A DNA stretch of 64,000 nucleotides from an uncultured Thermoleophilia bacterium (GTDB taxonomy: Bacteria > Actinomycetota > Thermoleophilia > UBA2241): the NCBI GenBank assembly GCA_963832655.1, contig CAWHUW010000005.1, forward strand, positions 65,014 through 129,013, read 5' to 3'. The position numbers and the translations under genes were made by a program. Positions 38,680-53,076 of the stretch are shown here, piece after piece. Every line of letters starts with the position of its first letter. The first letter of the stretch is position 1. The notes under the pieces were generated by a model, which saw only the letters and a list, made by a program, of their open reading frames with translations, ran no database searches and had not been told where the DNA came from.

Positions 38680-39062
38680 GACTGCCTCCTCGCGTAGCCG
38701 GCCGCGGGCACATCGGCACCCTTCTCCTCGCCGGGCGAGAATCGCTGGAGGGCGACCAGCAGGAGCATCCTGCCTTCGACCTCGAGGGCTCCCCGCAGGA
38801 TCGCCGCCATCATGTTCGCCTCGCCGCTCAGCACGGCGGTGAAGATCGCGGCGTCGCCGCGCAGGACGGCGTCCGGATCGCCTCCTTTGCGGGCGATGGT
38901 CACCGTGCCTTTCGCGATGGTGAGGTACCAGTGGTCGGTCCGCCCGGCGTCCTCGACGTCCAGGCGGACGACGCCGCTGATGGCAGCCGGCAGGCGCCGC
39001 TCGCGCGACTGCGCCGCGATCGCCTCCAGGAGGTCCTTCATCCGTGCCGCCATGGTGCTCAT
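38676..39062 (-). CDS. SCP2 sterol-carrier-like domain protein
   Basis: AAISGVVRLDVEDAGRTDHWYLTIAKGTV...GEANMMAAILRGALEVEG. The probable start is ATG 39053 (AAGGAG 9 nt upstream). Confidence 0.75.
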   Translation of the reverse strand: MSTMAARMKDLLEAIAAQSRERRLPAAISGVVRLDVEDAGRTDHWYLTIAKGTVTIARKGGDPDAVLRGDAAIFTAVLSGEANMMAAILRGALEVEGRMLLLVALQRFSPGEEKGADVPAAGYARRQS

Positions 39063-39068
39063 CTCCTT

Positions 39069-39836
39069 CTAGAGGCCCTTGTTCCAGTGGGACATGCCGC
39101 CGTCGACGTAGTAGGTGCTGCCGGTGACGTACGCCGCCTCATCCGAGGCGAGGAAGACGGCGACGGAGGCGACCTCATCGGGCTCGCCGAGGCGGCCCAG
39201 CGGGATCACGCCCTGCAGCTCGTGCAGCAGCTCGCCGTCGCCCAGGGTGCGCTTGTTGATCGGCGTGGCGATCGCGCCGGGGGCGATGTCGTTGACGGTG
39301 ATGCCGTGCGGCGCGAGCTCCTGGCAGACGGTGCGCGTGAACATGCGCATGCCGCCCTTGGACGCCGTGTACGTGCTGAACTGAAGAAAGGCGACGTCCT
39401 CGTGGATCGACGAGACGTTGATGATGCGGCCTCCGGCGCCGGCATCGATCATGAGCTTGGCGGCCGCTTGGGCGGCGAAGAACGCGCCCTTGAGATTGAC
39501 GCCGAGAACGAGGTCGAAGTGCTCCTCGCTCACGTCGACGAACGGCTCGCGGACCTCGACGCCGGCGTTGTTGACGAGGATGTCGAGGCGGCCGAGCGAG
39601 GCGTGCGCGTCGCGCACCAGGCGCTCGGCCTCGTCCGCCTCACCGACGTTCGCGCCCAGCGCGACCGACTTCCTGCCCAGCTTCTCGATCTCGGCCACCA
39701 CGGCGCGCGCGGTGTCGCCGCCGTGGTGGTAGTGCACGGCCACGTCGGCGCCCTCGCGGGCGAAGCGCAGCGCGATGGCCTCTCCGATGCCGCTGGAGCT
39801 GCCGGTCACGAGCGCCGCCTTGCCTTGGAGTCTCAT
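39069..39836 (-). CDS. SDR-family oxidoreductase (glucose 1-dehydrogenase-like)
   Basis: ALVTGSSSGIGEAIA, NNAG and catalytic YTASKGG. Confidence 0.9.
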   Translation of the reverse strand: MRLQGKAALVTGSSSGIGEAIALRFAREGADVAVHYHHGGDTARAVVAEIEKLGRKSVALGANVGEADEAERLVRDAHASLGRLDILVNNAGVEVREPFVDVSEEHFDLVLGVNLKGAFFAAQAAAKLMIDAGAGGRIINVSSIHEDVAFLQFSTYTASKGGMRMFTRTVCQELAPHGITVNDIAPGAIATPINKRTLGDGELLHELQGVIPLGRLGEPDEVASVAVFLASDEAAYVTGSTYYVDGGMSHWNKGL

Positions 39837-39844
39837 CGGTCATC

Positions 39845-40738
39845 TCACCTTTCTTCGCTCATCCCGCGAACGGCGTGCGTCGGGAGGCCGGCGACCCCCA
39901 CGTCCAGGCGCAGCAGGGCGCCGGCGAGGGGCTGCGCCGCGGCGTCCGCCGCGCCGAGTCCCTCTCGTCGGGTCGTCACGTACAGGTCGCGCAGCTCAGG
40001 TCCCCCGAAGCAGCAGCTCGTGACCCGGGCCACGGGCAGGTCCACGACCGCCGACGATCTCGCCGTCGGGCGAGTAGCGGTCGCAGGCCCCAGCCGCCGT
40101 GCAAGGCGACCCAGACGCCAGCCCTCGGCGTCGACCGTGAGGCCGTCGGGGACGGCGCCCTCGACCTCGACGGCGGCCAGCGGCCGCCGGTCCTCGAGGG
40201 CGCCCGTCTCCGGGTCGAAGTCGAAGACGTCGACGCGGCGCGTCGGACTATCGATGAAGTAGAAGTCCTGCCCCGACGGGCTCCATCCCAAGCCGTTCGA
40301 GATCGTCGTCCCCGTGAGCACGGTCGTCACGCTCAGATTCGCGTCCACCCGGTACAGCGCGCCCAGCGGGGAACGCTCGTCGAGCGCCATGGTGCCGACC
40401 CACAGCCGCCCCGCCGCGTCGCAGGCGCCGTCGTTGGTGCGCGTTCCGGCCTGTTCGGATTCGATGGGCGCGACGAGAGGTGACTGCTCGCCGTCGAGGA
40501 GATGCAGGCCGTCGGGCAGCCCGATCACGACGCCGCCCCGCCGGCGCGGCAGGGCGAGACTGACGACATCCGCGACCTGCTGCGCCGCGTTTGTCCGCGT
40601 CGAAGGATCGTAGCGGTGGACGAGCTTCGCTGGGATGTCGACCCAGAGCAAGGTCTGGGTCGCGGCATCCCAGCGTGGGCCCTCACCGAGTCCCGCCCGG
40701 GCACCGACGGCGACCTCGAAGTCAGTGAAACGCGGCAC
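39845..40738 (-). CDS. SMP-30/gluconolactonase/LRE-family protein; three compensating frame shifts within 40045-40125
   Basis: GEGPRWD, NDGACDAAGRLWVGT and SNGLGWSP. The expected DAEGxVWVALHGGWG..RYSPDGEIVGVVDLP is spread over three frames, while the listed ORF reads GWRLGRLARRLGPATATRPTARSSA. Confidence 0.8.
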   Translation of the reverse strand: MPRFTDFEVAVGARAGLGEGPRWDAATQTLLWVDIPAKLVHRYDPSTRTNAAQQVADVVSLALPRRRGGVVIGLPDGLHLLDGEQSPLVAPIESEQAGTRTNDGACDAAGRLWVGTMALDERSPLGALYRVDANLSVTTVLTGTTISNGLGWSPSGQDFYFIDSPTRRVDVFDFDPETGALEDRRPLAAVEVEGAVPDGLTVDAEGWRLGRLARRLGPATATRPTARSSAVVDLPVARVTSCCFGGPELRDLYVTTRREGLGAADAAAQPLAGALLRLDVGVAGLPTHAVRGMSEER

Positions 40739-40741
40739 GTG

Positions 40742-41035
40742 TCACGCTTCGGCCGACGAACCGGGGATGCGGTCGCGGTTGCCCCAGGCGCCCCCGGTCC
40801 AGAAGGCGACGTCGGCGAAGATCCCGAGCGCGATCCAGACCCAGTCGAAGCCGTTGATCCCCGCGGGCTTCACGAGCACGTAGCTCATCGTCGTCCAGGG
40901 CACGAAGACGATGCCGAACGCGGGCCACAGCCAGCTGCTGAAGGCGAGGTCCCAGCGCTCCGGCTGGATCGCCCACCAGATGATGCCGGCGGCGCGAGGC
41001 CCGAGCAGGAACAGCGAGGTGAAGAAGCAGCACAT
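40742..41035 (-). CDS. small (97 aa) Trp-rich membrane protein, unknown family
   Basis: ATG follows GGAGGGACC. Three hydrophobic segments. Lies immediately downstream of the CoADR-rhodanese gene. Confidence 0.6.
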   Translation of the reverse strand: MCCFFTSLFLLGPRAAGIIWWAIQPERWDLAFSSWLWPAFGIVFVPWTTMSYVLVKPAGINGFDWVWIALGIFADVAFWTGGAWGNRDRIPGSSAEA

Positions 41036-41065
41036 GGTCCCTCCATTACAGTTGTTTGGACTCGT

Positions 41066-42781
41066 TCAGACCGTCGCGAAGATCTCGTGCGACAGCATGC
41101 CGCCGGCGACGGTCCGCGCAGTGAAACCGTTCTGCAGCAGGATCCGCGTCGCGTAGTAGGCCCGCTGGCCCGACCGGCAGATTACGAGGATCTCACGATC
41201 GCGGGGCAGCTCATGCAGGCGCCCGCGGAGCTCATCCACCGGGATGTTGACCACCCCCGGCAGTTGCTCGAGCGCAAGCTCCTCAGGATGGCGCACGTCG
41301 AGGAGGAAGCCGTCTTTCGTGGCGTCCCAATGGATGAGCGGCATGTCGCCCCGCAGGACGTCGGCGCCCACCATCCCGGCGAAGTTGGCGGGCGACTTCG
41401 CCATGCCGAACTGGGGCGCGTAGCAGAGCTCGCACTCCTCCAGATCGTAGACGGTGCCACCCATCTGGATGGCCATGGCCAAGGCGTCGATCCGCTTGTC
41501 CACGCCCTCCCTCCCCACGGCCTGCGCCCCGAGGAGCCGCCCGTCGGATCTGCGGAAGATGACCTTGATGGCGAGCAAAGTAGCGCCGGGGTAGTACCCT
41601 GCGTGGGAGTTCGGGTAGAGGTAGATCTTCTCGAAGTCGTCGTCGCCCAGGCGCCTGAGGGTCTTCTCGTTCACGCCGGTCCAGGCGACTGCGCCCCCGA
41701 AGGCTCCGAGGATCGCCGTGCCCTGGGTGCCGCGGAACCGCGAGTCCCGCCCGGAGATCACGTCGGCCACGATGCGACCTTGCCGGTTCGCCGGCCCGGC
41801 CAGCGCGACGAGACAGTCTTCGCCGGTCATGCAGTCCGTCTTCTCGACAGCGTCGCCGACGGCGAAGATGTCCGGGTCGCTCGTGCGCATCTGGTCGTCG
41901 ACGCGGATGCCGCCGAGCTTGCCGACCTCGATGCCGGCCATCTCGGCGAGCGCGGTCTCGGGCTTCACGCCGATACCGAGGATCACGATGTCCGCCGGAT
42001 ACGCCTCGCCGGATGCGGTGAGGACCTCGAGGGATCCGTCCGCCGCCTTCCGGAACCCGGACGCCGCACTGTTCAGCAGGATCCGCACGCCGTTCTTGCT
42101 GAGATGGCGCTCCACGTAGCGCGCCATCTCGATGTCGAGCGGCCCCATGATCTGCTCGCCGCGTTGCAGCAGCGTGACCTCGAAGCCGAGCCCGACCAGG
42201 TTCTCGGCCGTCTCGATGCCGATGAAGCCCCCGCCGACGACGACCGCGCGCAAGCCCCTGGTGCGTGTCTGGAACCCGGTGTAGGAGTCCATGCCTCCCG
42301 ACCTGCCGCGACGCTCGTCGATCCAGGCACGGATCTGGGCGGCGTCCGGTACCGTCCTCACCCCGAAGATCCCGGGAAGGTCGATCCCCGGCAGCGGCGG
42401 GCGGATGGGAGCCGCCCCGGGTGAGAGGACGAGCCTGTCGTAGTGCTCGGTGGTCACCTCACCCGTCAAGCGGTCCGTGAGCTGCACAGTCTTCTCGCGC
42501 GCCGCGATCCCGACCACCTCGCAGTCAGTGCGGGCATCGACGGCGAACATGTCGCGAAAGGTATCCGTGGTCGCGACCAGCAGAGTCGACTGCTGCTCGA
42601 TCACGCCGCCGATGAAGTACGGGAGGCCGCAGTTCGCGTACGAGACGTACGGACCGCGTTCGACCATGAGGATCTCGGCGTTCTCGTCGAGGCGGCGCAG
42701 GCGCGCGGCGCACGAGGCGCCGCCGGCCACGCCGCCCACGATGATCACCTTCGTGCCTGCGGGTTTGTCTGTGGGTCCCAT
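41066..42781 (-). CDS. CoA-disulfide reductase / NADH-dependent persulfide reductase fused to a C-terminal rhodanese domain
   Basis: VIIVGGVAGGASCAARLRR, redox Cys in SYANCGLPYFIGG, second Rossmann VVVGGGFIGIE. Rhodanese active-site loop VICRSGQRA near the C-terminus. Confidence 0.9.
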   Translation of the reverse strand: MGPTDKPAGTKVIIVGGVAGGASCAARLRRLDENAEILMVERGPYVSYANCGLPYFIGGVIEQQSTLLVATTDTFRDMFAVDARTDCEVVGIAAREKTVQLTDRLTGEVTTEHYDRLVLSPGAAPIRPPLPGIDLPGIFGVRTVPDAAQIRAWIDERRGRSGGMDSYTGFQTRTRGLRAVVVGGGFIGIETAENLVGLGFEVTLLQRGEQIMGPLDIEMARYVERHLSKNGVRILLNSAASGFRKAADGSLEVLTASGEAYPADIVILGIGVKPETALAEMAGIEVGKLGGIRVDDQMRTSDPDIFAVGDAVEKTDCMTGEDCLVALAGPANRQGRIVADVISGRDSRFRGTQGTAILGAFGGAVAWTGVNEKTLRRLGDDDFEKIYLYPNSHAGYYPGATLLAIKVIFRRSDGRLLGAQAVGREGVDKRIDALAMAIQMGGTVYDLEECELCYAPQFGMAKSPANFAGMVGADVLRGDMPLIHWDATKDGFLLDVRHPEELALEQLPGVVNIPVDELRGRLHELPRDREILVICRSGQRAYYATRILLQNGFTARTVAGGMLSHEIFATV

Positions 42782-42809
42782 CGTCACGTCCTTTCTCGAT
42801 GACCTGCTG

Positions 42810-43211
42810 CTACGCAACGTCACGCCCCTCGTCCATCGGAGCTCCAGTCACGAGCTCGACCGCGGGCAGCAGATCGGTCACGATCGCCCGCTTGAGGACG
42901 AAGGCGTCGGCGCCGGCTTCGATCGCTGCCCGGCGCACGCTCTGCTCGTCGTGCACGCTGAGGACGATCACCTTGAGCTCGGGGCAGCGCTGCCGGACCG
43001 CTCGCAACCAGTCCAGACCGCTGTTCTGAGCCAGAGACAGATCCACGACCGCCACGTCAGGCTGCAGCCGGCTCGCGCTCTCGAGCAGCGACGCCTCGTC
43101 GGCGACCATGACGACCGCTCCGAACGCCGTCTCGAGCAAGCCGCGCACGCCTTCTGTGAGGCCCTGATGGCGGTCCGCCAGCAGCACGCAACTGAGATGC
43201 TTCTCGGGCAT
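42810..43211 (-). CDS. stand-alone response-regulator receiver domain protein (no output domain)
   Basis: MPEKHLSCVLLADRHQG..., phospho-acceptor context DVAVVDLSL, VIVLSVH and AFVLKRA. The acidic pair is degenerate (DR instead of DD). Confidence 0.8.
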   Translation of the reverse strand: MPEKHLSCVLLADRHQGLTEGVRGLLETAFGAVVMVADEASLLESASRLQPDVAVVDLSLAQNSGLDWLRAVRQRCPELKVIVLSVHDEQSVRRAAIEAGADAFVLKRAIVTDLLPAVELVTGAPMDEGRDVA

Positions 43212-43271
43212 GGGGCAGTCTCTCTCCGCTACCGTGCTCGCCACCATGCCGGTCGGCATACGGCGTCGAGT

Positions 43272-43343
43272 GGAGACTAGTGCGGATCCGGAGCGCTGTG
43301 ACCTCGGGAAACTACCGGGCCTGTCGCTGGGAAACTACGAGGG
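43272..43343 (-). promoter_or_regulatory. conserved promoter-like element, copy A (drives receiver / CoADR-rhodanese unit)
   Basis: The minus strand reads CCCTCGTAGTTTCCCAGCGACAGGCCCGGTAGTTTCCCGAGGTCACAGCGCTCCGGATCCGCACTAGTCTCC. TAGTCT lies about 62 nt upstream of ATG 43211. Confidence 0.6.
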
Positions 43344-43383
43344 TGCCGGACGCTGCTGGGGCCAATGCCCACGTACGGACCGA

Positions 43384-45393
43384 ATGGTAGACTCCGGCAA
43401 CGTGGCCACGATCGATGAGACGTCGCGCTCTGCCGAGCCCCTGGGGAGCCGTCTCGAGTTCGAGACGCTGATCTCCGACCTCTCCGCGAGGTTCATCAAC
43501 CTGCCGGGCGGCGAGGTGGACGGCGCGATCAAGGACGCGCTGCGCAGCGTCTGCGAGTTCCTCGCCATCGACTATGCCGTGCTCTGGCAATGGTCGGCCG
43601 CGGCGCAGGACGCCATCACGCCCACTCACGCCTTCCCCGCCGAGGAAGGCTCGCGACCTCCCGGGCCGCTTCGTCAGGAGCAGTACCCCTGGACGGTACG
43701 GCAGATGCAGGCCGGCCACATGGTCGTGCTTGCCGCGCTGGAGGACCTGCCGGCTGAGGCCGCCGTCGACCTGGAGCACGCCCGCCTCGGCGGTATCAAG
43801 TCGACGTTGTGCCTGCCGCTGCGGGTGGGAGGCGAGTCGACCGTTGGCGCCCTGGCCCTCAATGCCCTGCGGACGGAGCGCGACTGGCCGGACGCGCTGG
43901 TGAGGCGACTGCAACTGGTCGCGCAGGTCTTCGCCAATGCATTGGCTCGAAAGCGGGCAGACGATGCCTTGCGCGAGAGCGAGGAGCGCCTGGCCCTGGC
44001 GGCGGACTCCGCCGAGGCGGGGCTCTGGACCCTGGAGTACGGCACGGGCGTCTTCTGGGCCACTGAGAGGGCTCGGGCGATCTTCGGGTATACGCCGGAC
44101 GAGGTCGTCACGATGGAGCGTTTCCAGGCTTCGGTGCATCCCGACGACTGGGAGCTCGTTCGGGGAGCCATCGAGCGGTCCGCGCGTGCGGGCGAACCCG
44201 TCAACGTGGACTACCGGATCCTGACGGAAGGGGGCGGCGAGCGTTGGATCGTGTCTCGCGGGCGACCCCACTTCACGTCGCTTTGGGAGCCGGATCGCCT
44301 GACGGGCCTCTCCATCGACATGACCGGGCGCAAACGCGGCGAAGAGGCGCTTCACATCAGCGAGGCTCGCCTGGCGGCGGGCGCTGACCTCGCAGGCCTC
44401 GCGTTCTACGAGGTGGACTTCGGCGAACGCGTCGCCATCGTCGACGACCGGTTTCGCGACATCTGCGGCATTCCCCAGGAACAGGAGAAGGGCCTTCAGC
44501 CAGTGGAGTTCTGGATTGAGCACTTGCACCCTGACGATCGCCGACGCGTGTTGCACCAGCGCGAGGAGCTGCACGAAGGGAGGCTGGAGCGGCTCTCCAT
44601 CGAGTATCGATACCTGCATCCGGCCCATGGGGAGAAGTGGCTTGATCACGAGTCCCGCGTCACCGCGCGCGACGCCACCGGACGCGTGGTCAAGACATTC
44701 GGCGTCCTCCGCGACATCACCGAGCGAAAGCGAGTCGAGGAAGAGCTGCGCGACCTGAGCCGGCGCCTGATCGGAGCCCACGAGGAAGAGCGCGCGCTGC
44801 TCGCGCGCGAGTTGCACGACGACGTGAGCCAGCGGCTCGCCGTGCTGGCGATCGACGTCGGCCGCGCCGAGCTGGCCGCCCCGGACAGGGCGCAGGCAGA
44901 GGCCATGACGGCGGTCCGTGAGGGACTCACGCGCCTCAGCGAAGACGTCCACTCCCTGGCGTACCAGCTGCACCCGTCGGTCCTGGAGGAGCTGGGCCTG
45001 GACGAGGCGCTTCGGGCGGAATGCGAACGGCGGGGTCGTCAGGGCGCGCTCGACATCTCGGTCGACCTCGGCCCGCTGCCCGCCGTCGTAGGCAAGGGCG
45101 AAGCGCTGTGCCTGTTTCGGGTGGCCCAGGAGGCGCTCAACAACGTGGCCCGCCACGCGGGTGCGCGCGCCGCGAGCGTCACGCTACGGGAGATGGACGA
45201 CGGGTTGCTCCTCGCCGTCCGTGACGACGGCGTCGGCTTCGATCCTGAGAATCCGCGAAAGGGGATGCGCCTCGGCCTCGTGGGTATGCGCGAGCGCGTG
45301 CGACTGGTGCGCGGCACGCTCGACGTCGAGAGCGCGCCCGGCCGGGGCACGACGATCGTCGCCTGGGTACCCGCGGAAGCGGAGTCGCGATGA
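43384..45393 (+). CDS. cytosolic sensor histidine kinase, GAF-PAS-PAS-HisKA_3-HATPase_c
   Basis: No TM segment. GAF (LAIDYAVLWQW...LCLPLRVGGESTVGALAL) and two PAS/PAC repeats (...VHPDDWELV...; ...LHPDDRRRV...). H-box EEERALLARELHDDVSQ. NNVARHA, DDGVGFD and GLVGMRERV. Confidence 0.9.
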   Translation: MVDSGNVATIDETSRSAEPLGSRLEFETLISDLSARFINLPGGEVDGAIKDALRSVCEFLAIDYAVLWQWSAAAQDAITPTHAFPAEEGSRPPGPLRQEQYPWTVRQMQAGHMVVLAALEDLPAEAAVDLEHARLGGIKSTLCLPLRVGGESTVGALALNALRTERDWPDALVRRLQLVAQVFANALARKRADDALRESEERLALAADSAEAGLWTLEYGTGVFWATERARAIFGYTPDEVVTMERFQASVHPDDWELVRGAIERSARAGEPVNVDYRILTEGGGERWIVSRGRPHFTSLWEPDRLTGLSIDMTGRKRGEEALHISEARLAAGADLAGLAFYEVDFGERVAIVDDRFRDICGIPQEQEKGLQPVEFWIEHLHPDDRRRVLHQREELHEGRLERLSIEYRYLHPAHGEKWLDHESRVTARDATGRVVKTFGVLRDITERKRVEEELRDLSRRLIGAHEEERALLARELHDDVSQRLAVLAIDVGRAELAAPDRAQAEAMTAVREGLTRLSEDVHSLAYQLHPSVLEELGLDEALRAECERRGRQGALDISVDLGPLPAVVGKGEALCLFRVAQEALNNVARHAGARAASVTLREMDDGLLLAVRDDGVGFDPENPRKGMRLGLVGMRERVRLVRGTLDVESAPGRGTTIVAWVPAEAESR

Positions 45394-46040
45394 GCTCTCC
45401 GCGTCGTCCGCGCGTGCTCCTCGCCGACGACCATCTGCTGGTCGCCGAGGCGCTCAAGAGCCTGCTCACCCCCGAGTTCGATCTGGTGGGCGTGGTGGAA
45501 GACGGGCTCGCTTTGGTCGAGGCGGCCGGGAGGCTGCGCCCGGACGTGATCGTCGCCGACGTCACCATGCCCCACCTCAACGGCATCGACGCCCTGGCGC
45601 GGTTGAGGCAGGGCGGCGATCGAGTTCCCGTGGTGTTCCTCACCATGCACCGGGACGTGACCTTCGCGCGGCGCGCGCTCGAAGCCGGGGCCTCGGGCTT
45701 CGTGCTCAAGCACTCGGCGTCGGTCGAGTTGATCGCCGCCCTCCACGCCGCACTCGAAGGCAAGACCTACCTCACGCCGCAGCTCGCGGGGGAGGTCCTG
45801 GAGGCCATGAAGCAGGGGCCGGGGCAGGCGGCCGATCCAGTCGCATCCCTCACGCCGCGGCAACGAGAAGTCTTGCAGCTTCTGGCGGAGGGGCGCTCGG
45901 CCAAGCAGATCGCCTCGAGCCTCTCGATCTCGACCCGGACGGTGGAGTTCCACAAGTACCAGATGATGGAGACGCTGGGCCTTCACACCAACGCCGACCT
46001 GATCCACTTCGCGATCAAGAACGGCCTCGTCGAGTTCTGA
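45390..46040 (+). CDS. NarL/LuxR-family response regulator
   Basis: ATGA overlap with the kinase. VLLADDHLLV, VIVADVTMPHLNG. HTH LTPRQREVLQLLAEGRSAKQIASSLSISTRTVEFHK. Confidence 0.9.
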   Translation: MSSPRRPRVLLADDHLLVAEALKSLLTPEFDLVGVVEDGLALVEAAGRLRPDVIVADVTMPHLNGIDALARLRQGGDRVPVVFLTMHRDVTFARRALEAGASGFVLKHSASVELIAALHAALEGKTYLTPQLAGEVLEAMKQGPGQAADPVASLTPRQREVLQLLAEGRSAKQIASSLSISTRTVEFHKYQMMETLGLHTNADLIHFAIKNGLVEF

Positions 46041-46054
46041 ACCCCCGCCCCGGA

Positions 46055-46125
46055 CCTCGTAGTCTCCCGCGAACACGCCCGTAGTTTCCCGAGGTCACAG
46101 CCCCTCGGATCCCGGCTAGTCTCCC
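46055..46125 (+). promoter_or_regulatory. conserved promoter-like element, copy B
   Basis: CCTCGTAGTCTCCCGCGAACACGCCCGTAGTTTCCCGAGGTCACAGCCCCTCGGATCCCGGCTAGTCTCCC. Starts 15 nt after the regulator stop. Confidence 0.6.
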
Positions 46126-46211
46126 GCGTGGAGGCCAGTATCGGGAGGCAAGACCATAACGATTCACGAGGAATCCACCCCCCATTCGGCCACGCGCGGC
46201 CAGAGGAGAAG

Positions 46212-46724
46212 GTGCTCGAGCGAGTCTGGGAGTGGCGCATCTGCGACCGCTGCGGCGAGACCATCATGCTTGGCGAGGAGAGACTCCGACCGCGACGTGG
46301 TCTGGGCCGGCAGCCCCGGCATTGTCCAAGCCATCGACGTCCCGCGGATCATTGGCGCAGCTCGCGACGCCGACGTCGCGGTCGAGATCGTAGTCCCCCT
46401 CGGCGAGACGGTGCAACAGCACACCCCGGTGGCTGTCATCCACGGGACCGCCGACCCGTCGCTGGACGCCGTGGTGGTGAAGGCGCCCCGGAGTGCGGCG
46501 TGCGCGCGGTCGCGGTCCACAGGCGCCGCCTGCACTATACCGTCAATGGGTGCATGTCGGAGGTGACCGAGGTGGTCGCGGAGGGAAAGAAGGTGCGAAC
46601 GCTGGCCATCGAGTCGGAAGGCGCCGACCGAGTGGTCGCCGCCGTGCGGGAACTCGGGCTCGCCGACCGCGCAAACACCAGCTACCCGCGATTGCTCAAG
46701 GCCGCCGTCGGCATGGAAGGCTGA
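46212..46724 (+). pseudogene. mosaic of gene remnants: CxxC N-terminus / DUF2254-like fragment / CYTH-like C-terminal fragment
   Basis: GTG 46212 follows AGAGGAGAAG (VLERVWEWRICDRCGETIMLGEE). Frame +1 reads DVVWAGSPGIVQAIDVPRIIGAARDADVAVEIVVPLGETVQQHTPVAVIHG. The original frame again reads HRRRLHYTVNGCMSEVTEVVAEGKKVRTLAIESEGADRVVAAVRELGL. Family assignments are from memory. Confidence 0.4.
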
Positions 46725-46734
46725 GGCGGCCCAC

Positions 46735-47646
46735 ATGCCCATCTATGCGGTCATCGACGTCGGCACCAACTCGGTCAAGTCCCACATCGGGGAGCGGCGC
46801 GCGGACGGCTCGTGGGTCACGATCGTCGACCGCGCCGAGGTCACGCGCCTCGGCGAGGGCATCGCGGAGACGGGCGACATCGCGCCGGCGGCGATCGCGC
46901 GGACGGCGGAGGCGATCGCCGGCATGGCCGACGAGGCGCGGCGGCACCACGCTGCGGCCCTGGTCGCCGTCGGGACCATGGGGCTTCGCAGCGCGGGCAA
47001 CAGCGACAGCTTCATCGCCCGCGTGCGGGAGCGGTGCGGCGTCACCATCGAGGTGATCCCTGGGAAGGAAGAGGGACGGCTCGCCTATCTGGCGGCGAAG
47101 GCCGGAATCGGCCCCGCCGAGGGACGCCTGGTCGTGTTCGACACCGGCGGCGGCAGCACCCAGTTCACCTTCGGCCGCGGCGACGAGGTGGACGAGCAGT
47201 TCAGCCTGAACATCGGCGCCGCGCGCCTCACCGCGCAGTTCAGGCTGAGCGGCCCCATCGCCCGCGAACGGCTGGACGAGGCGCTGGCCGCCATCTCCAG
47301 CGAGTTCGGGCGCCTCGACGCCGTCCCGTCCCCGGACGCGCTCGTCGGCATAGGCGGCGCCGTCACCAGCATGACCGCGGTGATGCTCGGTCTGTCACCC
47401 TACGATCCGGATGTCGTGCAAGGCACCGTGCTCAGTCGCGCCGAGGTCGACAGCCAGATCGAGCTCTACCGGACGCGCGACGTCGAGGCGCGCCGGCAGA
47501 TCGTCGGCCTGCAGCTCAAGCGCGCCGACGTCATCCTCGCCGGCGCGTGCGTGGTGCGCACCGTCATGGACAAGCTGGGAAGGGACGCCCTGACCGTGAG
47601 CGACCGGGGGCTGCGGCATGGCGTGCTGCTCGAACGCTTCGGCTGA
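46735..47646 (+). CDS. Ppx/GppA-family phosphatase (exopolyphosphatase-like)
   Basis: AVIDVGTNSVKSHI, VFDTGGGSTQF and GIGGAVTS; ASKHA-fold motifs. Intact 303 aa. Confidence 0.9.
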   Translation: MPIYAVIDVGTNSVKSHIGERRADGSWVTIVDRAEVTRLGEGIAETGDIAPAAIARTAEAIAGMADEARRHHAAALVAVGTMGLRSAGNSDSFIARVRERCGVTIEVIPGKEEGRLAYLAAKAGIGPAEGRLVVFDTGGGSTQFTFGRGDEVDEQFSLNIGAARLTAQFRLSGPIARERLDEALAAISSEFGRLDAVPSPDALVGIGGAVTSMTAVMLGLSPYDPDVVQGTVLSRAEVDSQIELYRTRDVEARRQIVGLQLKRADVILAGACVVRTVMDKLGRDALTVSDRGLRHGVLLERFG

Positions 47647-47811
47647 GTCGGTGGGCCGTCGCGTACCGTGCCCTTGTGCGCACGGTGGTCACCGGACATC
47701 ATGCGCACACGGTAACCCTTTGGAAACGAAGATGGCCTCGCGGCGTCACGGTCCGCGCGAGGCTCCAGCGGGGCGCTACAGGATAGCGTGCCGGGCGAAA
47801 GGAGAGAGGCG

Positions 47812-48594
47812 ATGACCCCCAAGGCGGCCCAAGGCGGGCTCGACACCGAGCAGTTCGCGACGTTGCTGGAGCTCGTCAAGGGCTCGAAGAGCGTCGAGAT
47901 GAAGTTGACGATCCCCCAGGAGAGCACCCGCGCGGCGATCGAGGCACTAGGCCTCGATCCGCTCGACGGGCAGATCCGGCTGGTGACCTTCTTCGACACC
48001 CCCGACCTCGCCCTCAATCAGGCCGGCGTCGTGGTGCGCGCCCGCCGCATCCAGGGCAAGGGCGCCGACTCCGTGGTCAAGCTGCGCCCGGTCGTGCCCG
48101 ACGAGCTCCCCGCCAAGCTGCGCCGCCTGCCCACCTTCGGCATCGAGGTCGACGCCATGCCCGGCGGCTTCGTGTGCTCGGCGTCCTTCAAGGGCGTCGC
48201 CGACCCCGGCAAGGCGAAGCTGGTCAGCCTCGGACAGGCCCCCGTGCGCAAGGCGTTCAACAAGGAGCAGCGCGCCTTCTACAAGGCCCACGCCCCCGAA
48301 GGCCTCGAGCTCGACGACCTCGCGGCCCTCGGCCCGATCTTCGTGGTCAAGGTGCCGTTCACGCCCAAGGAGCTCGCCCACAAGCTCGTCGCCGAGCTGT
48401 GGCTCTACCCCGACGGCAGCCGCATCTTCGAGCTCTCCACGAAGTGCGCCCCGCCCGACCTGATGCAGGTCTTCACCGAGGTGCGCCATTTCCTGATCCA
48501 GCGGAGCATCGACCGCCAGGGCGAGCAGCAGACGAAGACGAAACGCGCCCTTGAGTACTTCGCCAAGGGCCTCAAGACTGCCAAGGCCTCGTAG
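47812..48594 (+). CDS. uncharacterised protein, CYTH-like (triphosphate tunnel) fold suspected
   Basis: ATG 47812 follows AAAGGAGAGAGG. SVEMKLTIP..., VVVRARRIQGKGADSVVKLRP. The TAG stop lies inside element C. Confidence 0.6.
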   Translation: MTPKAAQGGLDTEQFATLLELVKGSKSVEMKLTIPQESTRAAIEALGLDPLDGQIRLVTFFDTPDLALNQAGVVVRARRIQGKGADSVVKLRPVVPDELPAKLRRLPTFGIEVDAMPGGFVCSASFKGVADPGKAKLVSLGQAPVRKAFNKEQRAFYKAHAPEGLELDDLAALGPIFVVKVPFTPKELAHKLVAELWLYPDGSRIFELSTKCAPPDLMQVFTEVRHFLIQRSIDRQGEQQTKTKRALEYFAKGLKTAKAS

Positions 48595-48634
48595 TTTCCC
48601 GAGGTCACAGCCGCCGGCGTCCGCACTAGTCTGC
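48587..48634 (+). promoter_or_regulatory. conserved promoter-like element, copy C (drives rhodanese / DszB-like unit)
   Basis: CCTCGTAGTTTCCCGAGGTCACAGCCGCCGGCGTCCGCACTAGTCTGC. TAGTCT lies about 100 nt upstream of ATG 48731. The upstream box is only weakly present. Confidence 0.6.
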
Positions 48635-48730
48635 GGTGTGCGCCCTGTCGCCACGGCGCCGCGTCAGCCACGCCCCTTGCCGGAAAGACCATCGGTATGG
48701 CGTGGAAACCAGGCAGCAGGAGGGCCGACC

Positions 48731-49261
48731 ATGGCACCCCCCGAGGGATCAGGCTCGCCGCCGAAGCACGAGGTGCCCGAGAAGAAGCAGACGTCTCTGG
48801 GGCTCTACGTGACGGCGCGGGAGGCCTACGAGATGTGGAAGGCAGCGCCCGAGAAGGTCCACGTCATCGACGTCCGCACCCCCGAGGAGTACGTCTTCGT
48901 CGGCCACGCGGAGATGGCGCGCAACATCCCGCTCGTCTTCATGCGCTACCAGTGGGACGCGGAGAAGGACGAGCCTGTCGTCGAGCCCAACGCCGAGTTC
49001 GTCGCCAGGGTGCAGGCGCGCCACAGGCCGACCGACACGCTCCTCCTCATCTGTCGCTCCGGGGGCCGCAGCGCCTGGGCGGTCAACTTCCTCGCCAAGG
49101 CCGGCTTCACCAACGCCTACAACGTGATCGACGGCACCGAGGGCGACAAGGTCGACGACCCCGGCAGCGCCTATCACGGCAAGCGCGTGAGGAACGGCTG
49201 GAAGAACTCAGGATCGCCGTGGACCTACGACTGCGATCCAGACCTGCTTTGGACCGCCTAG
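48731..49261 (+). CDS. rhodanese-like sulfurtransferase domain protein
   Basis: ATG follows GCAGGAGGG. VIDVRTPEEY, active-site loop LICRSGGRS and C-terminal NGWKNSGSPW. Confidence 0.85.
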   Translation: MAPPEGSGSPPKHEVPEKKQTSLGLYVTAREAYEMWKAAPEKVHVIDVRTPEEYVFVGHAEMARNIPLVFMRYQWDAEKDEPVVEPNAEFVARVQARHRPTDTLLLICRSGGRSAWAVNFLAKAGFTNAYNVIDGTEGDKVDDPGSAYHGKRVRNGWKNSGSPWTYDCDPDLLWTA

Positions 49262-49296
49262 CCAGTCGCGAAGACCCCCCACGAAAGGACTCAGAT

Positions 49297-50463
49297 ATGG
49301 CTGAGACAGAGAGAGTGAGCACCACCGTTCCGCTGAACTGGAAAGAGGTGTGGTTCACCAACTGCCCCATGGTGTCGGCGAACAACGTCGATCAGGAGCT
49401 CGGCTGGTGCCGCGAGGAGTTCAAGAAGATCGGCGTCGAGTACGCCTACTTCCGCCACGCGCCCGAGAACAACTGGTACCCGCACTACATCCACAACCTC
49501 GATAACCTGGTCCGCTTCGGCGGCCTGTATCCCCCGATCCACGTGCACGCCGACCTCCGGCGGACCGTACTGCTGGGAGCCACGTGGGTGTACGAGGGCG
49601 GCTGCATGGCCGTGCGCGCCCGCGACAAGATCTTCCGGATGAAGGATCTCAAGGGCAAGAAGATCGGCATCTCCAAGAGCCTGAACACCATCAAGAACGA
49701 CTGGTGGCGCATCCAGGAGCACATGGGCATCGAGAACATGCTGATGCTCAACGACATGACCATGGACGACATCGAGCTCGTCGAGTTCCCCTACCCGGAC
49801 GACTGGTACGACAAGCCCGAGATGCTGGTCCCACCGATGAACAACCCGTCCGAACTCTGGATGCGCCGCGACCACAAGCACGACCTGGCCTTCCGGCCGC
49901 TGGAGAACGCACTGCTCGGCGGCAAGGTCGACGCCATCTACACGCAGAGCAAGGTCTTCCAGCATCTGCAGGAGGCTACGGGCAAGATCAAGATGATCGA
50001 GGACCTGTCCAAGTACCCGGACTGGTCCATACAGGTCGCCAACACTCCCGCTGTCATCACCTGCACAGACGTGATGGCCAAGGAGCACCCTGAGCTCGTC
50101 ATCGCCTACATGAAGGCCATGATCAAGGTCGGGCGCTGGGCAAACGAGAACAAGCACGCCGCAGGAGCGATCCTCAACCGGCAGACGTTCTATCTGGACG
50201 CCGAGGACACGTACCAGGGCATCAAGGACGTCGACATGGTGCCGAGCCTGTGTGCGCAGAACCTTGAGTGCGTCAAGATCGGCAAGGACTTCATGGTCAG
50301 CCACGGCTACATCAAGAACGACTTCGATGTGGACGAGTGGGCCGCGCCTGAGTTCCTGGAGAAGGCGGCCGAGGAAGTGCTCAAGGAGGAGTGGGCGAGA
50401 AGGAGCTGGAGCAAGCTTCCTCAGGGTGGCGGGCTCGAGGTCGAGGGCACGCGGCTCGGCTAG
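49297..50463 (+). CDS. DszB-like (2'-hydroxybiphenyl-2-sulfinate desulfinase family) / NMT1-THI5-type periplasmic-binding-fold protein
   Basis: FTNCPMVSANN, VRFGGLYPPI and the C-terminal DEWAAPEFLEKAAEE. These recall DszB YSNCPVPNA (Cys27), RFGGEIPPL (Arg70) and DQWAAPEFLNNSL, from memory. No signal peptide. GC is visibly lower (one hand-counted 60-nt line gave 35/60). Confidence 0.7.
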   Translation: MAETERVSTTVPLNWKEVWFTNCPMVSANNVDQELGWCREEFKKIGVEYAYFRHAPENNWYPHYIHNLDNLVRFGGLYPPIHVHADLRRTVLLGATWVYEGGCMAVRARDKIFRMKDLKGKKIGISKSLNTIKNDWWRIQEHMGIENMLMLNDMTMDDIELVEFPYPDDWYDKPEMLVPPMNNPSELWMRRDHKHDLAFRPLENALLGGKVDAIYTQSKVFQHLQEATGKIKMIEDLSKYPDWSIQVANTPAVITCTDVMAKEHPELVIAYMKAMIKVGRWANENKHAAGAILNRQTFYLDAEDTYQGIKDVDMVPSLCAQNLECVKIGKDFMVSHGYIKNDFDVDEWAAPEFLEKAAEEVLKEEWARRSWSKLPQGGGLEVEGTRLG

Positions 50464-50588
50464 CCGAGCCGACGTTGGGTAGAATGCCGTGACCCCTTGG
50501 TTACCGACCGCCCCGATGTGTGGGGCGATGTGCGATCGGGGCGCAGGGGCTCTCAAGGCGTGACGACACAACGAGAATGGAGACGCCG

Positions 50589-51055
50589 ATGAACGACGCT
50601 GCCATGGACGAACTGGGGCCGATCGACTACCTGGTGGTCGAGTTCCCCGCCGGTAAGGCCGCCTTCTCGGGAGAGATGGGGGGAAACTGAAGGCGCTGGT
50701 CGAGGCTGGCACCATCCGGGTGCTCGACATGCTGATCATCACCAAGGAGGCCGACGGCTCGGTCGACGCCTTCGAGGTCCACGACTTCGAGGGCGACGAC
50801 GTCGGCGCGCTGCGCGAGTTCGGCGCCGAGCTGGCGCAGCTGCTCTCCGAGGAGGACGTCGGCCACATCGCCGCGGCGCTCGAGCCCGGCACCGTCGCCG
50901 CGGCGCTGGTCTGGGAGAACACCTGGGCGGCGCCGTTCGCCTCGTCGATCCGCCGCTCGGGCGGCCAGCTCGTGGGCAGCGGCCGTATCCCCATGCAGGC
51001 GATCCTCGCCGCCGTCGAGGCGGACGAGGACGCGGCACAGACGGAAGGAGCCTGA
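50589..51055 (+). CDS. DUF6325-family protein; 1-nt deletion in a G-run (50672-50677)
   Basis: MNDAAMDELGPIDYLVVEFPAGKAAFSGEMGG, then in the shifted frame LKALVEAGTIRVLDMLIITKEADGSVDAFEV...ALVWENTWAAPFASSIRRSGGQLV. Confidence 0.65.
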
Positions 51056-51056
51056 G

Positions 51057-51251
51057 ATGCCTCTTGGACCAGGACGTAGAGGACCTGGCGTGATCGGCCG
51101 GCCGGTCGCACGCACCGCTGCCGTGGTCGCCGTGGCTACGCCCGGTCGCGGCGCGCCCGGGCCGGGTATGAGGCCGGGACGTGGCGTCGGCGCGCCGGGG
51201 ATAGGCATCAGGCCGGGCCCGGGACCGGGAGGACTCGGCCCCGGACGCTGA
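51057..51251 (+). CDS. Gly/Pro/Arg-rich 64-aa ORF (doubtful)
   Basis: Starts 1 nt after the DUF6325 stop. Only GVIGRPVARTAAVVAVAT looks protein-like; the rest is low complexity. Confidence 0.3.
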   Translation: MPLGPGRRGPGVIGRPVARTAAVVAVATPGRGAPGPGMRPGRGVGAPGIGIRPGPGPGGLGPGR

Positions 51252-51300
51252 CGGAAGGTGCGGCAGGGGTGAGGGCGACGCCCTCACCCCTGCCGTCTCC

Positions 51301-51768
51301 ATGCCTGAGCCGCCCGCCCCTGCTCGGGCCAGGCGCCTTCGTCATCGCACGCTTCCTGCTGGCGAGGAACGACCTGCCAACGCCATCGCCGCCGACCTTG
51401 ACGTGCCCAGCGCGGACGTTCTGGCGCGCATGGCCGAGGAGCTGAGCGGCAGCGACGTCCGCCTCATGCTGACGCGCGTGATCACGCCCGTGCTCGAGAT
51501 GATGGAGCGCGCCGGTGTCCTGGAGAAGATCGGTCCGCAGGGAGTCTTCGTCCGTCCGCCCGAAGCGATCCTGGACTACCTCTCGTCCCAGTACGATGCC
51601 GCCGGTGTCCAGGAGCTGCTTCGGAGCGCGGTCATCAGGGTGCGCGTGCTGCTGCAGGCGCACGTGTCGAACGTCCCGGTCGAGCGACAGGTCGCGCTCG
51701 CCGAGATCCTGAAAGGTCTGGACGAGGCGATCGAGCGCAGCGGCACCTCCGGCCCGGGAGCCTCGTAG
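51301..51768 (+). CDS. STAS-domain-like protein (possibly a truncated SulP C-terminus)
   Basis: DVPSADVLARMAEELSGSDVRLMLTRVITPVLEMMERAGVLEKIG resembles the end of a STAS domain. The Arg/Pro-rich first ~30 codons are doubtful. The TAG stop lies inside element D. Confidence 0.45.
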   Translation: MPEPPAPARARRLRHRTLPAGEERPANAIAADLDVPSADVLARMAEELSGSDVRLMLTRVITPVLEMMERAGVLEKIGPQGVFVRPPEAILDYLSSQYDAAGVQELLRSAVIRVRVLLQAHVSNVPVERQVALAEILKGLDEAIERSGTSGPGAS

Positions 51769-51832
51769 ATCCTCAGCCACGAGCCCCGTAGTTTCCCGAG
51801 GTCACGGCTCTCCGGATGCGGGCTAGTCTCCA
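51762..51832 (+). promoter_or_regulatory. conserved promoter-like element, copy D (drives HdeD-like gene)
   Basis: CCTCGTAGATCCTCAGCCACGAGCCCCGTAGTTTCCCGAGGTCACGGCTCTCCGGATGCGGGCTAGTCTCC. TAGTCT lies about 60 nt upstream of ATG 51891. Confidence 0.6.
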
Positions 51833-51890
51833 CCCGAGGCCGCCGGCGATCGCCGGCGCCTGTCACGGACTGAGACGGAGGTATCGGGAT

Positions 51891-52271
51891 ATGAACAAGG
51901 GACTCGGCTGGATCATGTTCGCGTGGGTCATGCTGCTCACGGCTGGGATCATGAACATCATCGACGGTGTCGTCGCCCTCGGCCAGACGAAGTTCTGGAC
52001 GGACTACGGCGCCGTGTACGTGTACGGCGACCTGCGCACCTGGGGCTGGATCGTCCTCATCTGGGGCATCGTCCTCTGTTTCGCCGCCGCCAGCGTCTGG
52101 CGCGGCGGCGGCTTCGGCCGCTGGCTCGGCATCTTCGCCGCGGCCATCAACCTCTTCCTGCAGATGTTCTTCCTGCCGGCCTATCCGTTCTGGGCGCTCA
52201 CGATCATGGCGCTCGACGTCCTCGTGATCTACGGGCTCACCGTGTACGGCGGGTCCGCTCAGGAGGACTGA
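51891..52271 (+). CDS. HdeD/DUF308-like small membrane protein
   Basis: ATG follows GGAGGTATCGGG. Four TM segments (GWIMFAWVMLLTAGIMNIIDGVVAL...). Confidence 0.7.
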   Translation: MNKGLGWIMFAWVMLLTAGIMNIIDGVVALGQTKFWTDYGAVYVYGDLRTWGWIVLIWGIVLCFAAASVWRGGGFGRWLGIFAAAINLFLQMFFLPAYPFWALTIMALDVLVIYGLTVYGGSAQED

Positions 52272-52363
52272 GCTCGTCCGGCTCGACCAGAGACTGGGTG
52301 CGGGACGTCAAGACCGCCGAGAAGCGACCTCAAAGCGCCGCGACCTCGAGGCGGGCGGAATGA

Positions 52364-52400
52364 CCGGCGGGGGAGGGGCACGCAGTCCCTCCCCCGCCGG
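52364..52400. terminator. 14-bp GC hairpin between convergent genes (bidirectional terminator candidate)
   Basis: CCGGCGGGGGAGGG-GCACGCAGT-CCCTCCCCCGCCGG; no U-tract. Confidence 0.4.
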
Positions 52401-52419
52401 TCCGATGATCCCAGCGGAA

Positions 52420-53076
52420 TCAGTCGCTTCGATGCAGCCAGCGTCGCAGCGTCTGCACCGGGAGGAGCAGGAAGACGCCGATCAGGACGTACAGGGCTAC
52501 GGCGAGATAGGGCGAGAAGAGGCCGCACACGATCGCCACGGCGTAGAGAACGAGGCTCGGGGCGAGCTGGTAGCGGATCCTGCTCTCCTCGGTGCGTTCC
52601 TCCGCGGCGTCATCGCCGAAGAGGCCCTCGCGCTCGGCGTAGCGCCCCAGCCCGAGCAGCACCAGGCTGATCAGGAAGAGCGCGACGCCGAAGAAGGCGA
52701 CCGCGACCTGCTCTCCCCCCTGTTTGTCGTCGACGGTGCTCAGGTACTCCGACATGACGCTCGTCGGGAAGGGCAGGAAGCCGACGAGCAGCAGGAGCAG
52801 CAGGTTCAGCCGCTGGAACCCGGAATCGACGTGGTCGAGGGCCTCGGTGAGGGCGCTGTGCTCAATCCAGGCGATGCCGATGGTCATGAAGGCGATGAAG
52901 TAGGCGAGGTAGGTCGGGCGCTCGCGGAGGAGCTCTTCGAGAAGACGGTCGCCGGAGACCTGTGGTACCGCGATCTCGAGGACCAGCAGCGTGATCGCGA
53001 TCGCGAAGACCCCGTCACTGAACGCCTCGAGCCGGCCTTTCGCTCTGTCTCCGGAACGTGTGACTACCCGTTTCAT
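52420..53076 (-). CDS. TMEM175-family potassium channel (DUF1211)
   Basis: RLEAFSDGVFAIAITLLVLEI signature, repeated as GFQRLNLLLLLLVGFLPF. Confidence 0.85.
   Translation of the reverse strand: MKRVVTRSGDRAKGRLEAFSDGVFAIAITLLVLEIAVPQVSGDRLLEELLRERPTYLAYFIAFMTIGIAWIEHSALTEALDHVDSGFQRLNLLLLLLVGFLPFPTSVMSEYLSTVDDKQGGEQVAVAFFGVALFLISLVLLGLGRYAEREGLFGDDAAEERTEESRIRYQLAPSLVLYAVAIVCGLFSPYLAVALYVLIGVFLLLPVQTLRRWLHRSD

Follow-up and report, generated by a model that had tools for sequence, protein, structure and literature searches.

Four promoter-like elements with tandem boxes beside a NarL-family two-component system in an uncultured Thermoleophilia bacterium

Why should one 18-mer, GTAGTTTCCCGAGGTCAC, stand unchanged in front of several gene units of an uncultured Thermoleophilia bacterium? 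The sequence lies in a stretch of 64 kb from contig CAWHUW010000005.1 (assembly GCA_963832655.1), which we call the window and which has a G+C content of 69%. Here, it occurs exactly four times (copies A to D, Table 1), and allowing up to three mismatches yielded no further sites in the window. In shuffled versions of the window, the mean number of matches was 0.03, and four or more matches were reached in 0 of 100 shuffles. The first-pass annotation of this DNA had called the exact fourfold occurrence more than chance, and these numbers bear it out. Judging from the sequence, we consider it likely that each copy belongs to a promoter of the housekeeping sigma factor which depends on the two-component system encoded next to it.

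The first-pass annotation had described the surroundings of the 18-mer in some detail, and most of this description holds. Its positions for copies A, B, and C are correct; copy D had been placed at 51789-51806, one base too far to the right. An alignment confirms that in all four copies GTCAC(A/G) is followed by 17 nucleotides (nt) and then by TAGTCT. A second box (U1), which precedes the box within the 18-mer (U2), is indeed present at copies A (GTAGTTTCCC, 23 nt), B (GTAGTCTCCC, 22 nt), and D (GTAGATCCTC, 23 nt), so that the distances in the window are 22-23 nt; the three boxes are of the GTAG(T/A)(T/C)(T/C)C type. Copy C has no U1 because the position falls into the 3' end of the open reading frame (ORF) 47788-48594. 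As had been noted, the TAG of a box also serves as the stop codon of the upstream ORF in two cases, namely inside U2 in copy C (TAG 48592-48594) and inside U1 in copy D (ORF 51301-51768). Element A lies between the divergent receiver and kinase genes and is directed towards the receiver gene, and element B begins 15 nt after the stop codon of the regulator gene. The sequence TAGTCTCC at 21773 is within coding sequence and comes without the remaining element parts; as a further element, it was rejected as a chance match.

Homologs of the neighboring regulator number in the thousands. The best 120 clusters (at 90% identity) are all 84-93% identical to the query and are almost entirely derived from metagenomes, and the loci of three homologs carry the same element in front of neighboring genes. 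We scanned one genome per species with the pattern CGTANNNYCCCGAGKTSACRGC, in which the -10 was left unspecified, and obtained at least 118 loci. The matches listed fall into two clean classes, true elements and chance matches. The latter lie inside coding sequence (e.g., in a conserved Streptomyces gene) and have neither TANNNT nor an upstream box. True elements, among the matches listed, all come from metagenome-assembled genomes (MAGs), which are labeled as Thermoleophilia and other Actinomycetota, as Holophagae/Acidobacteriota, and as Propionivibrio, Rhodocyclaceae, and Burkholderiales. Nearly all of them have TANNNT exactly 17 nt past the -35-like hexamer. With a position-weight matrix made from the true elements, the scores were bimodal, either 39 and above or 24 and below, and within the window the matrix found only the four known sites.

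Since part of U2 and the -35 had been set in the pattern for the genomes, an independent scan of metagenomes specified U1 and U2 alone. This gave 110 loci, in which there were 102 unique box pairs. TANNNT stood at the position predicted by the 17-nt spacing in 40 of these pairs, a GTCACA-type hexamer in 34, and both in 33. The relaxed whole-element pattern was found in 43 of the 110 loci; the rest are unrelated tandem repeats. The first-pass annotation had suggested searching relatives for the pattern and relating it to gene starts, and the outcome is the same architecture, directed towards genes.

From 60 unique elements, a consensus was built which reads CCYCGTAnTTTCCC (U1), about 9 nt, CCCCGTAnT(T/A)TCCC (U2), GAG, GTCACA, GC plus 15 nt, and TA(G/A)(T/C)CT. 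The flanks are not conserved. As a strict U-box position-weight matrix was too stringent for counting U1, we counted mismatches instead (at most three over 10 positions). U1 was thus found in 64 of 72 unique elements, at an offset from U2 of -23 (44 elements), -22 (10), or -24 (10). Boxes in the reverse orientation were almost absent around the 72 elements, and only the offset +87 reached three. The spacer between -35 and -10 had been described as partly conserved, and this is borne out by a motif close to CG.AT..CGAC and by a T at +30 in 43 of the 60 elements. Within it, TCCCGAC lies 23 nt beyond the same bases of U2 and resembles a degenerate third box.

Which sigma factor would read such an element? 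The -35-like hexamer is mostly GTCACA, a 4/6 match to TTGACA, and the rare variants GTGACA and TTCACA are nearer to TTGACA than GTCACA is. The -10 retains T1, A2, and T6, and its inner bases drift (TAGTCT, TAGCCT, TAGGCT, TAACCT, TAATCT, TACGCT). By lineage, TAGNCT prevails in Actinomycetota, with TAACCT in Holophagae and TAATCT in Betaproteobacteria. The spacing of -35 and -10 is 17 nt in nearly all elements, and a purine predominates 7-8 nt past the -10, at the predicted start. The -35 variants near TTGACA, the drifting interior of the -10, the purine at the start, and the fixed 17-nt spacing point to a housekeeping-sigma promoter. The consensus has no TGn extension ahead of the -10. Together with the weak -35, this fits a dependence on an activator. 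A promoter scan of the window with the TTGACA/TATAAT consensus gave 0 sites, as expected because its thresholds are too strict for a 4/6 -35 and a TAGTCT -10.

The 18-mer could instead be an extended -35 which is read by a dedicated sigma factor of the extracytoplasmic function (ECF) type and not by a response regulator. The unusual invariance of GAGGTCACAGC across phyla would suit such a factor. ECF promoters have a GGAAC-like -35 and a CGTC-like -10. The -10 found here, however, is TANNNT with a free interior and without a fixed CGTC/GTC motif, and the direct-repeat box 23 nt upstream plays no part in ECF recognition. No sigma gene is present among the neighboring genes listed or Pfam-scanned at these loci, where the recurring neighbor pair is a kinase and a regulator (about 40% of the element-bearing blocks listed). 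The variable -10 interior and the lack of an adjacent sigma gene among the genes listed led us to reject an ECF promoter, which we regard as very unlikely.

The kinase-regulator pair is tied to the elements by its occurrence. A regulator ortholog with at least 79% identity is encoded in 20 of 47 listed element-bearing 8-kb blocks of the genome scan and in 0 of 71 listed chance blocks (Fisher p = 5e-10). The metagenome loci give nearly the same numbers (20 of 43 element loci and 0 of 67 others, p = 2e-10). On contigs of megabase scale, the matches listed lie in adjacent blocks, at most 20 kb from the two-component genes.

The elements are also tied to gene starts. Outside called coding sequence lie 90 of 115 elements, although 78% of the loci were called coding (p = 1e-37). 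The simple gene caller over-extends N-termini, and its 25 in-coding elements include such artefacts. Element C of the window is one of them, as its downstream ORF was called back to TTG 48551, with the real start at ATG 48731. In 67 of 77 cases, a coding-like ORF starts on the same strand 0-210 nt past the predicted transcription start. Counting only start codons that have a ribosome-binding site, the first one usually lies 30-210 nt away from the predicted start, most often about 55 nt. Many sites unrelated to gene starts would, according to the first-pass annotation, have spoken for a repeat; the elements that we find are intergenic and gene-directed.

A dispersed repeat, such as a repetitive extragenic palindrome (REP), a miniature inverted-repeat transposable element (MITE), or a mobile promoter cassette, or else a structured leader RNA, would require no link to a two-component system. 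It would account for the four identical copies and for their spread among taxonomically distant MAGs. The window, however, holds just four copies per 64 kb, all upstream of genes, and the matches listed cluster by two-component genes. Terminal inverted repeats are absent, and the conservation ends at the element. A leader RNA is contradicted by the position of the conserved part, which precedes the predicted start. When folded, the four elements gave z-scores of -0.24 to +0.79, no better than shuffled sequences, and an Rfam search of 42500-52500 gave no family match at the elements. We rejected a REP/MITE repeat (few copies, gene-linked, no fold signal) as well as a cis-regulatory RNA (no Rfam match, no fold signal, conservation upstream of the start). 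Any explanation of this type is largely refuted and appears extremely improbable.

Among the genes behind the elements, those for receiver-only proteins belong to the commonest, and these proteins form one 28-member cluster with DUF7144 proteins, joined via an over-extended ORF. Rhodaneses or CoA-disulfide-reductase-like proteins with a rhodanese domain follow in 7 cases and a 195-aa (amino acid) protein and then Ppx in 4. Others are small membrane and zinc-ribbon-like proteins, SGL-family proteins, cardiolipin synthase/PLD, and NMT1-like proteins. In Betaproteobacteria, the downstream genes encode PPK2, a DUF3141 protein, and a long protein.

The regulator encoded in the window is the presumed box-binding protein. 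Its predicted recognition helix, RTVEFHKYQMME, is invariant in 7 aligned orthologs, including a 62%-identical homolog from a Rhizobium plasmid. The recognition helix of DosR (DevR) of Mycobacterium tuberculosis differs from it. Sequence searches of the PDB with the regulator and the kinase gave generic family matches only, at about 30% identity, and thus no characterized ortholog. VraR and NarL are the best matches of the regulator, with VraR, NarL, DesR, and DevR roughly equally distant. Among the curated NCBIfam families, the regulator reached no cut-off; membership in MctR/MctS or PRK15369 was rejected with scores far below the cut-offs.

We propose the following mechanism. The GAF-PAS-PAS kinase would phosphorylate the NarL-type regulator, which would then bind U1 and U2 cooperatively; these are CCYCGTAnTTTCCC direct repeats at a distance of 23 base pairs (bp), or about two helical turns. 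If transcription is taken to start 7 nt past the -10, the -10 occupies -12 to -7 and the -35 occupies -35 to -30. U2 plus GAG would span -52 to -36, with its center at about -44, and would abut the weak -35, and U1 would be 23 bp further upstream at about -67. The bound regulator would recruit RNA polymerase to the TANNNT -10, 17 bp past the -35. The four promoters, together with the kinase-regulator operon and its own, probably leaderless, extended -10 promoter, may constitute a local regulon. Its members would be receiver-only proteins, a rhodanese, a CoA-disulfide-reductase-like protein with a rhodanese domain, Ppx, a DUF7144 protein, and others. For the receiver-only proteins, we speculate that they act as a phosphate sink and thereby in feedback. 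Regulator binding, activation, and the start site are what we infer from the arrangement of the sequence, and three features are in line with it. A putatively cognate NarL-family regulator and HisKA_3 kinase are encoded near the elements; the boxes are located upstream of and abut the -35 at whole-helical-turn spacing; and a -35-like hexamer, a spacer of 17 nt in nearly all elements, TANNNT, and then a gene start follow one another.

The closest known layout is that of the DevR/DosR promoters of M. tuberculosis (tgs1-Rv3131, hspX, narK2-Rv1738), with boxes here centered at about -44 and 23 bp upstream. At tgs1, DevR occupies tandem boxes at -42.5 and -63.5, and their helical phase is required (PMC3177182). 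At hspX, a box centered at -43.5 lies beside a suboptimal -35, and DevR makes contact with region 4 of sigma and with the alpha subunits (PMC13486717). Both systems combine a NarL-family regulator with a cytoplasmic HisKA_3 kinase containing a GAF domain, and both have divergent promoter regions that share boxes as well as secondary sites of low conservation. They differ in the box, since the Dev box is an 18-20-bp palindrome with essential G5 and C7 in each half-site, whereas we find direct repeats. Furthermore, the kinase is GAF-PAS-PAS here, the regulon content differs, and DosR (PDB 3c3w, E = 1e-21) ranks below VraR and NarL as a match. A DosR regulon proper with Dev boxes was rejected, as the box is non-palindromic and DosR is one of many equally distant matches.

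The NarL/NarP 7-2-7 sites and the GerE-type operators of VraR, LiaR, UhpA, and BvgA belong to the same family of DNA-binding domains. The box can be read as an imperfect 7-2-7 site, CTCGTAG-TT-TCCCGAG. However, only 4 of 7 positions are symmetric here, and the dominant signal is the direct repeat at 23 bp. The NarL heptamer is TACYYMT, and it is absent from the boxes; reading the box as a NarL heptamer was rejected on its sequence. In terms of target genes, the NreBC system of Bacillus licheniformis comes to mind, in which, in response to sulfide, a PAS/HisKA_3 kinase and a NarL-type regulator activate sulfur-detoxification genes from a site beside these genes (PMC9918477). The putative targets here include a rhodanese and a CoA-disulfide-reductase-like protein with a rhodanese domain. 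The sensor domain architecture is different, and the NreBC targets are sqr and pdo (PMC9918477).

The only serious rival to activation is that the boxes are repression operators, with the regulator or a different protein bound there and keeping RNA polymerase out until it is released by a signal. The proximal box adjoins the -35, and the degenerate third box-like TCCCGAC in the spacer, 23 nt past U2, would lie beneath the polymerase. Yet a weak -35 (4/6) without a TGn ahead of the -10 is typical of activator-dependent and not of strong repressible promoters, and the in-phase boxes at about -44 and -67 are arranged like those of the activator DevR. In addition, the kinase has a promoter nearby with an extended -10, and boxes of this type are absent from the corresponding position there. 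On balance, we hold repression to be unlikely.

Several points nevertheless weigh against recruitment by a bound activator. A site that abuts the -35 could equally serve repression. The semi-conserved spacer in MAGs of different phyla (e.g., 46100-46116 in the window) is left unexplained by a recruitment model. GAGGTCACAGC (11 nt) is more conserved than a simple -35 requires, and this conservation is partly imposed, as these bases were set in the pattern used on the genomes. The box forms no clear palindrome, with only the outer CTCG/CGAG symmetric and U1 without a right arm. Dimers of the NarL family usually prefer inverted repeats. U1 is missing in 8 of 72 unique elements, including copy C of the window. 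Finally, the claim of a local regulon applies to a strict pattern and to the matches listed. Despite these points, the first-pass reading of the elements as a shared activator-dependent promoter that defines a local regulon finds support at the level of sequence and comparison, namely in the geometry, the box-only sample, the orientation of the elements towards genes, and the co-localization of the regulator. A regulon defined by tandem response-regulator sites is of a known kind; this regulator and its box appear to be new members of it. Literature searches for the motif returned only unrelated eukaryotic primers and sequences, and searches on Thermoleophilia, rhodanese, two-component systems, and the DUF names returned no description of this system.

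Table 1. Positions of the elements, their parts, and the surrounding genes and units in the 64-kb window
Feature	Position	Strand	Remarks
18-mer GTAGTTTCCCGAGGTCAC, copies A-D	43298-43315; 46081-46098; 48591-48608; 51788-51805	-; +; +; +	
-10-like TAGTCT hexamers	43274-43279; 46117-46122; 48627-48632; 51824-51829	-; +; +; +	
Element A	43274-43342	-	U1 43329-43342; U2 43306-43319 + GAG; GTCACA 43297-43302; TAGTCT 43274-43279; predicted start ~43267
Element B	46055-46122	+	U1 46055-46068; U2 46077-46090; GTCACA 46094-46099; TAGTCT 46117-46122; predicted start ~46129
Element C	48587-48632	+	no U1; U2 48587-48600; GTCACA 48604-48609; TAGTCT 48627-48632; predicted start ~48639
Element D	51761-51829	+	U1 51761-51774; U2 51784-51797; GTCACG 51801-51806; TAGTCT 51824-51829; predicted start ~51836
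Sensor histidine kinase, cytoplasmic	43402-45393	+	Pfam GAF, PAS, PAS, HisKA_3, HATPase_c
NarL/FixJ-family response regulator	45390-46040	+	Pfam Response_reg + GerE helix-turn-helix
Element A unit	36436-43211	-	7 genes; gaps tiny or overlapping
Receiver-only protein	42810-43211	-	element A unit
CoA-disulfide-reductase-like protein with C-terminal rhodanese domain	41066-42823	-	element A unit
GDE/MGH-like glycosidase	36436-38679	-	element A unit, last gene
Element B unit	46128-48594	+	chimeric ORF, Ppx, 268-aa protein
Chimeric ORF	46128 or 46209 to 46724	+	element B unit
Ppx exopolyphosphatase-family protein	46735-47646	+	element B unit
268-aa protein, no assigned function	47788-48594	+	element B unit
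Element C unit	48731-50463	+	rhodanese + NMT1/SsuA-like
Rhodanese	48731-49261	+	element C unit, ATG 48731
NMT1/SsuA-like protein	49297-50463	+	element C unit
DUF7144 protein	51891-52271	+	element D unit, ATG 51891, 55 nt past predicted transcription start

The gene layout of the window (Table 1) was derived from Pfam, NCBIfam, and codon-position G+C, and it revises the earlier one in several respects. The start of the receiver gene, formerly 43259, is corrected to ATG 43211, and that of the DUF7144 gene to ATG 51891. A 588-aa rhodanese/DszB-like ORF from 48697 proved to be a false frame across two genes in different frames, the rhodanese and the NMT1/SsuA-like gene. Each element lies upstream of a gene on the same strand, as had been stated, but the stated distance of 60-100 nt does not hold; from the end of the 18-mer to the start codon, it is about 87 (A), 30 or 111 (B), 123 (C), and 86 nt (D). 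The predicted 5' untranslated regions, with the start assumed 7 nt past the -10, are about 56 nt for A, 0 or 80 nt for B, 92 nt for C, and 55 nt for D.

Element A probably heads a single seven-gene operon, because the gaps between the genes are tiny or overlapping. Between the CoA-disulfide-reductase-like protein and the glycosidase, the unit encodes a 97-aa ORF, an SGL-family protein (Pfam "SMP-30/Gluconolactonase/LRE-like region"), an SDR, and an SCP2 protein. The related locus L001 (1443-7826) has the genes of this unit except for the 97-aa ORF in another order, so the gene order appears to have been reshuffled behind a constant promoter.

In the element B unit, the last 80 aa of the chimeric ORF (46128-46724) are 81% identical to the 195-aa protein encoded before Ppx in L001 (18837-19424), and the N-terminal part of the ORF (..LERVWEWRICDRCGETIMLGEE..) is similar to a small zinc-ribbon-like protein encoded behind the element in L049, L072, L073, and L091. 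It appears from these matches that a deletion has fused two regulon genes. Behind element C, the same-strand ORFs 50720-51055 (DUF6325-like) and 51301-51768 might belong to the unit.

Three box positions that vary freely elsewhere (in L001: GTAGATTCCC, GTACTATCCC, GTAGTTTCCC) are identical in all four copies of the window. The chance of such an identity is about 0.007, as a rough estimate from the consensus frequencies. This hints at a homogenization within the genome or a recent duplication of the promoter module.

The kinase gene has a promoter of a different kind. GTG 43402 is its probable start, eight nt beyond the extended -10 TGGTAGACT at 43385-43393. About 30 related loci have a conserved extended -10-like ATGGTGTAnCGT 6-8 nt before the GTG or ATG of the kinase. 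As this distance to the start codon is so short, the kinase-regulator mRNA probably lacks a leader and is made at a basal level. In compact loci, U1 of the divergent element abuts the extended -10 motif of the kinase, and autoregulation of the operon by the regulator is therefore possible.

Two further sequences were noticed. The box-only scan also caught an unrelated, AT-richer conserved sequence, CGTAGTTCCCCCACAATGTCGCACGTAATTTCCC...CAACCTTTCAGGTTTTGAAAT..GGTCGTTGCAATTGCAACG, in at least 11 metagenome contigs (L126, L134, L139, L142, L150, L182, L187, L188, L196, L200, and L221), and Rfam gave no family match for it in L134, L139, and L182. Window positions 42560-42735 (plus strand) have a sub-threshold Rfam match to V_AS7, a Vibrio antisense RNA (44.8 bits at a gathering threshold of 90, E = 4e-6). 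It is antisense within the CoA-disulfide-reductase-like gene and is probably spurious.

How is the system distributed? Element and regulator are found jointly in MAGs that are labeled with three phyla. Compared with the regulator of the window, identities are 82-94% in MAGs of Actinomycetota, 82.5-88% in Holophagae, and about 80% in Betaproteobacteria, and the cross-phylum values (79.6-88%) largely overlap the range within Actinomycetota. The kinase is about 50-73% identical, mostly 62-73%, and shows no taxonomic trend. The promoter core of about 45 bp is nearly unchanged across MAGs of different phyla. Since regulator and promoter core are conserved across phyla and the kinase identity follows no taxonomic trend, a horizontal spread of the whole module is suggested by these comparisons. 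This depends on the taxonomy of the MAGs; L051 ("Chloroflexia"), for example, is nearly identical to the Thermoleophilia locus L033, and its bin looks misassigned. The genes attached to the modules change with the host and have reserve-polymer, sulfur-transfer, and membrane functions (Ppx, PPK2, PhaC-like DUF3141, glycosidase, rhodanese, cardiolipin synthase).

A collection of plasmids contained no close homolog of the regulator; the best hit is the 62%-identical Rhizobium protein. It is encoded on plasmid NZ_CP030763.1 of Rhizobium leguminosarum ATCC 14479 (L234), together with an adjacent kinase gene and a receiver-only gene. Near 8642 and 9736, this plasmid has two repeats of about 60 nt which are identical over the stretch examined, start with CCTCGTAAATTTTCAACGTCAC, and contain the near-palindrome CCAGTAATATTGCTGG. 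They precede the receiver gene and a 2-hydroxyacyl-CoA dehydratase operon and retain only CCTCGTAAATTTTC of the box. L234 is thus a diverged version of the system, and with its cultured host, it is a possible experimental model.

What is gained is a precise operator/promoter model and a first regulon list (including PPK2 and DUF7144) for an uncharacterized two-component system which appears to be widespread among uncultured soil and sediment bacteria. With the motif, MAGs can be annotated for the regulon, and the distant version on the R. leguminosarum plasmid provides a starting point in a culturable host. Conceptually, the advance is modest, since tandem NarL-family sites and recruitment of the polymerase are a familiar mechanism. 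What is unusual is the strict conservation of the regulator and of a promoter core of about 45 bp in MAGs of different phyla. Only tentatively, and with more doubt than confidence, we suggest that the kinase, the regulator, and portable 70-bp promoter modules may be a self-contained regulon that has moved between phyla and that serves as a DosR-like dormancy or energy-stress program of abundant uncultured soil and sediment bacteria. As it stands, the system looks like an unstudied but ordinary kind of stress regulon, with the elements as its on-switch.

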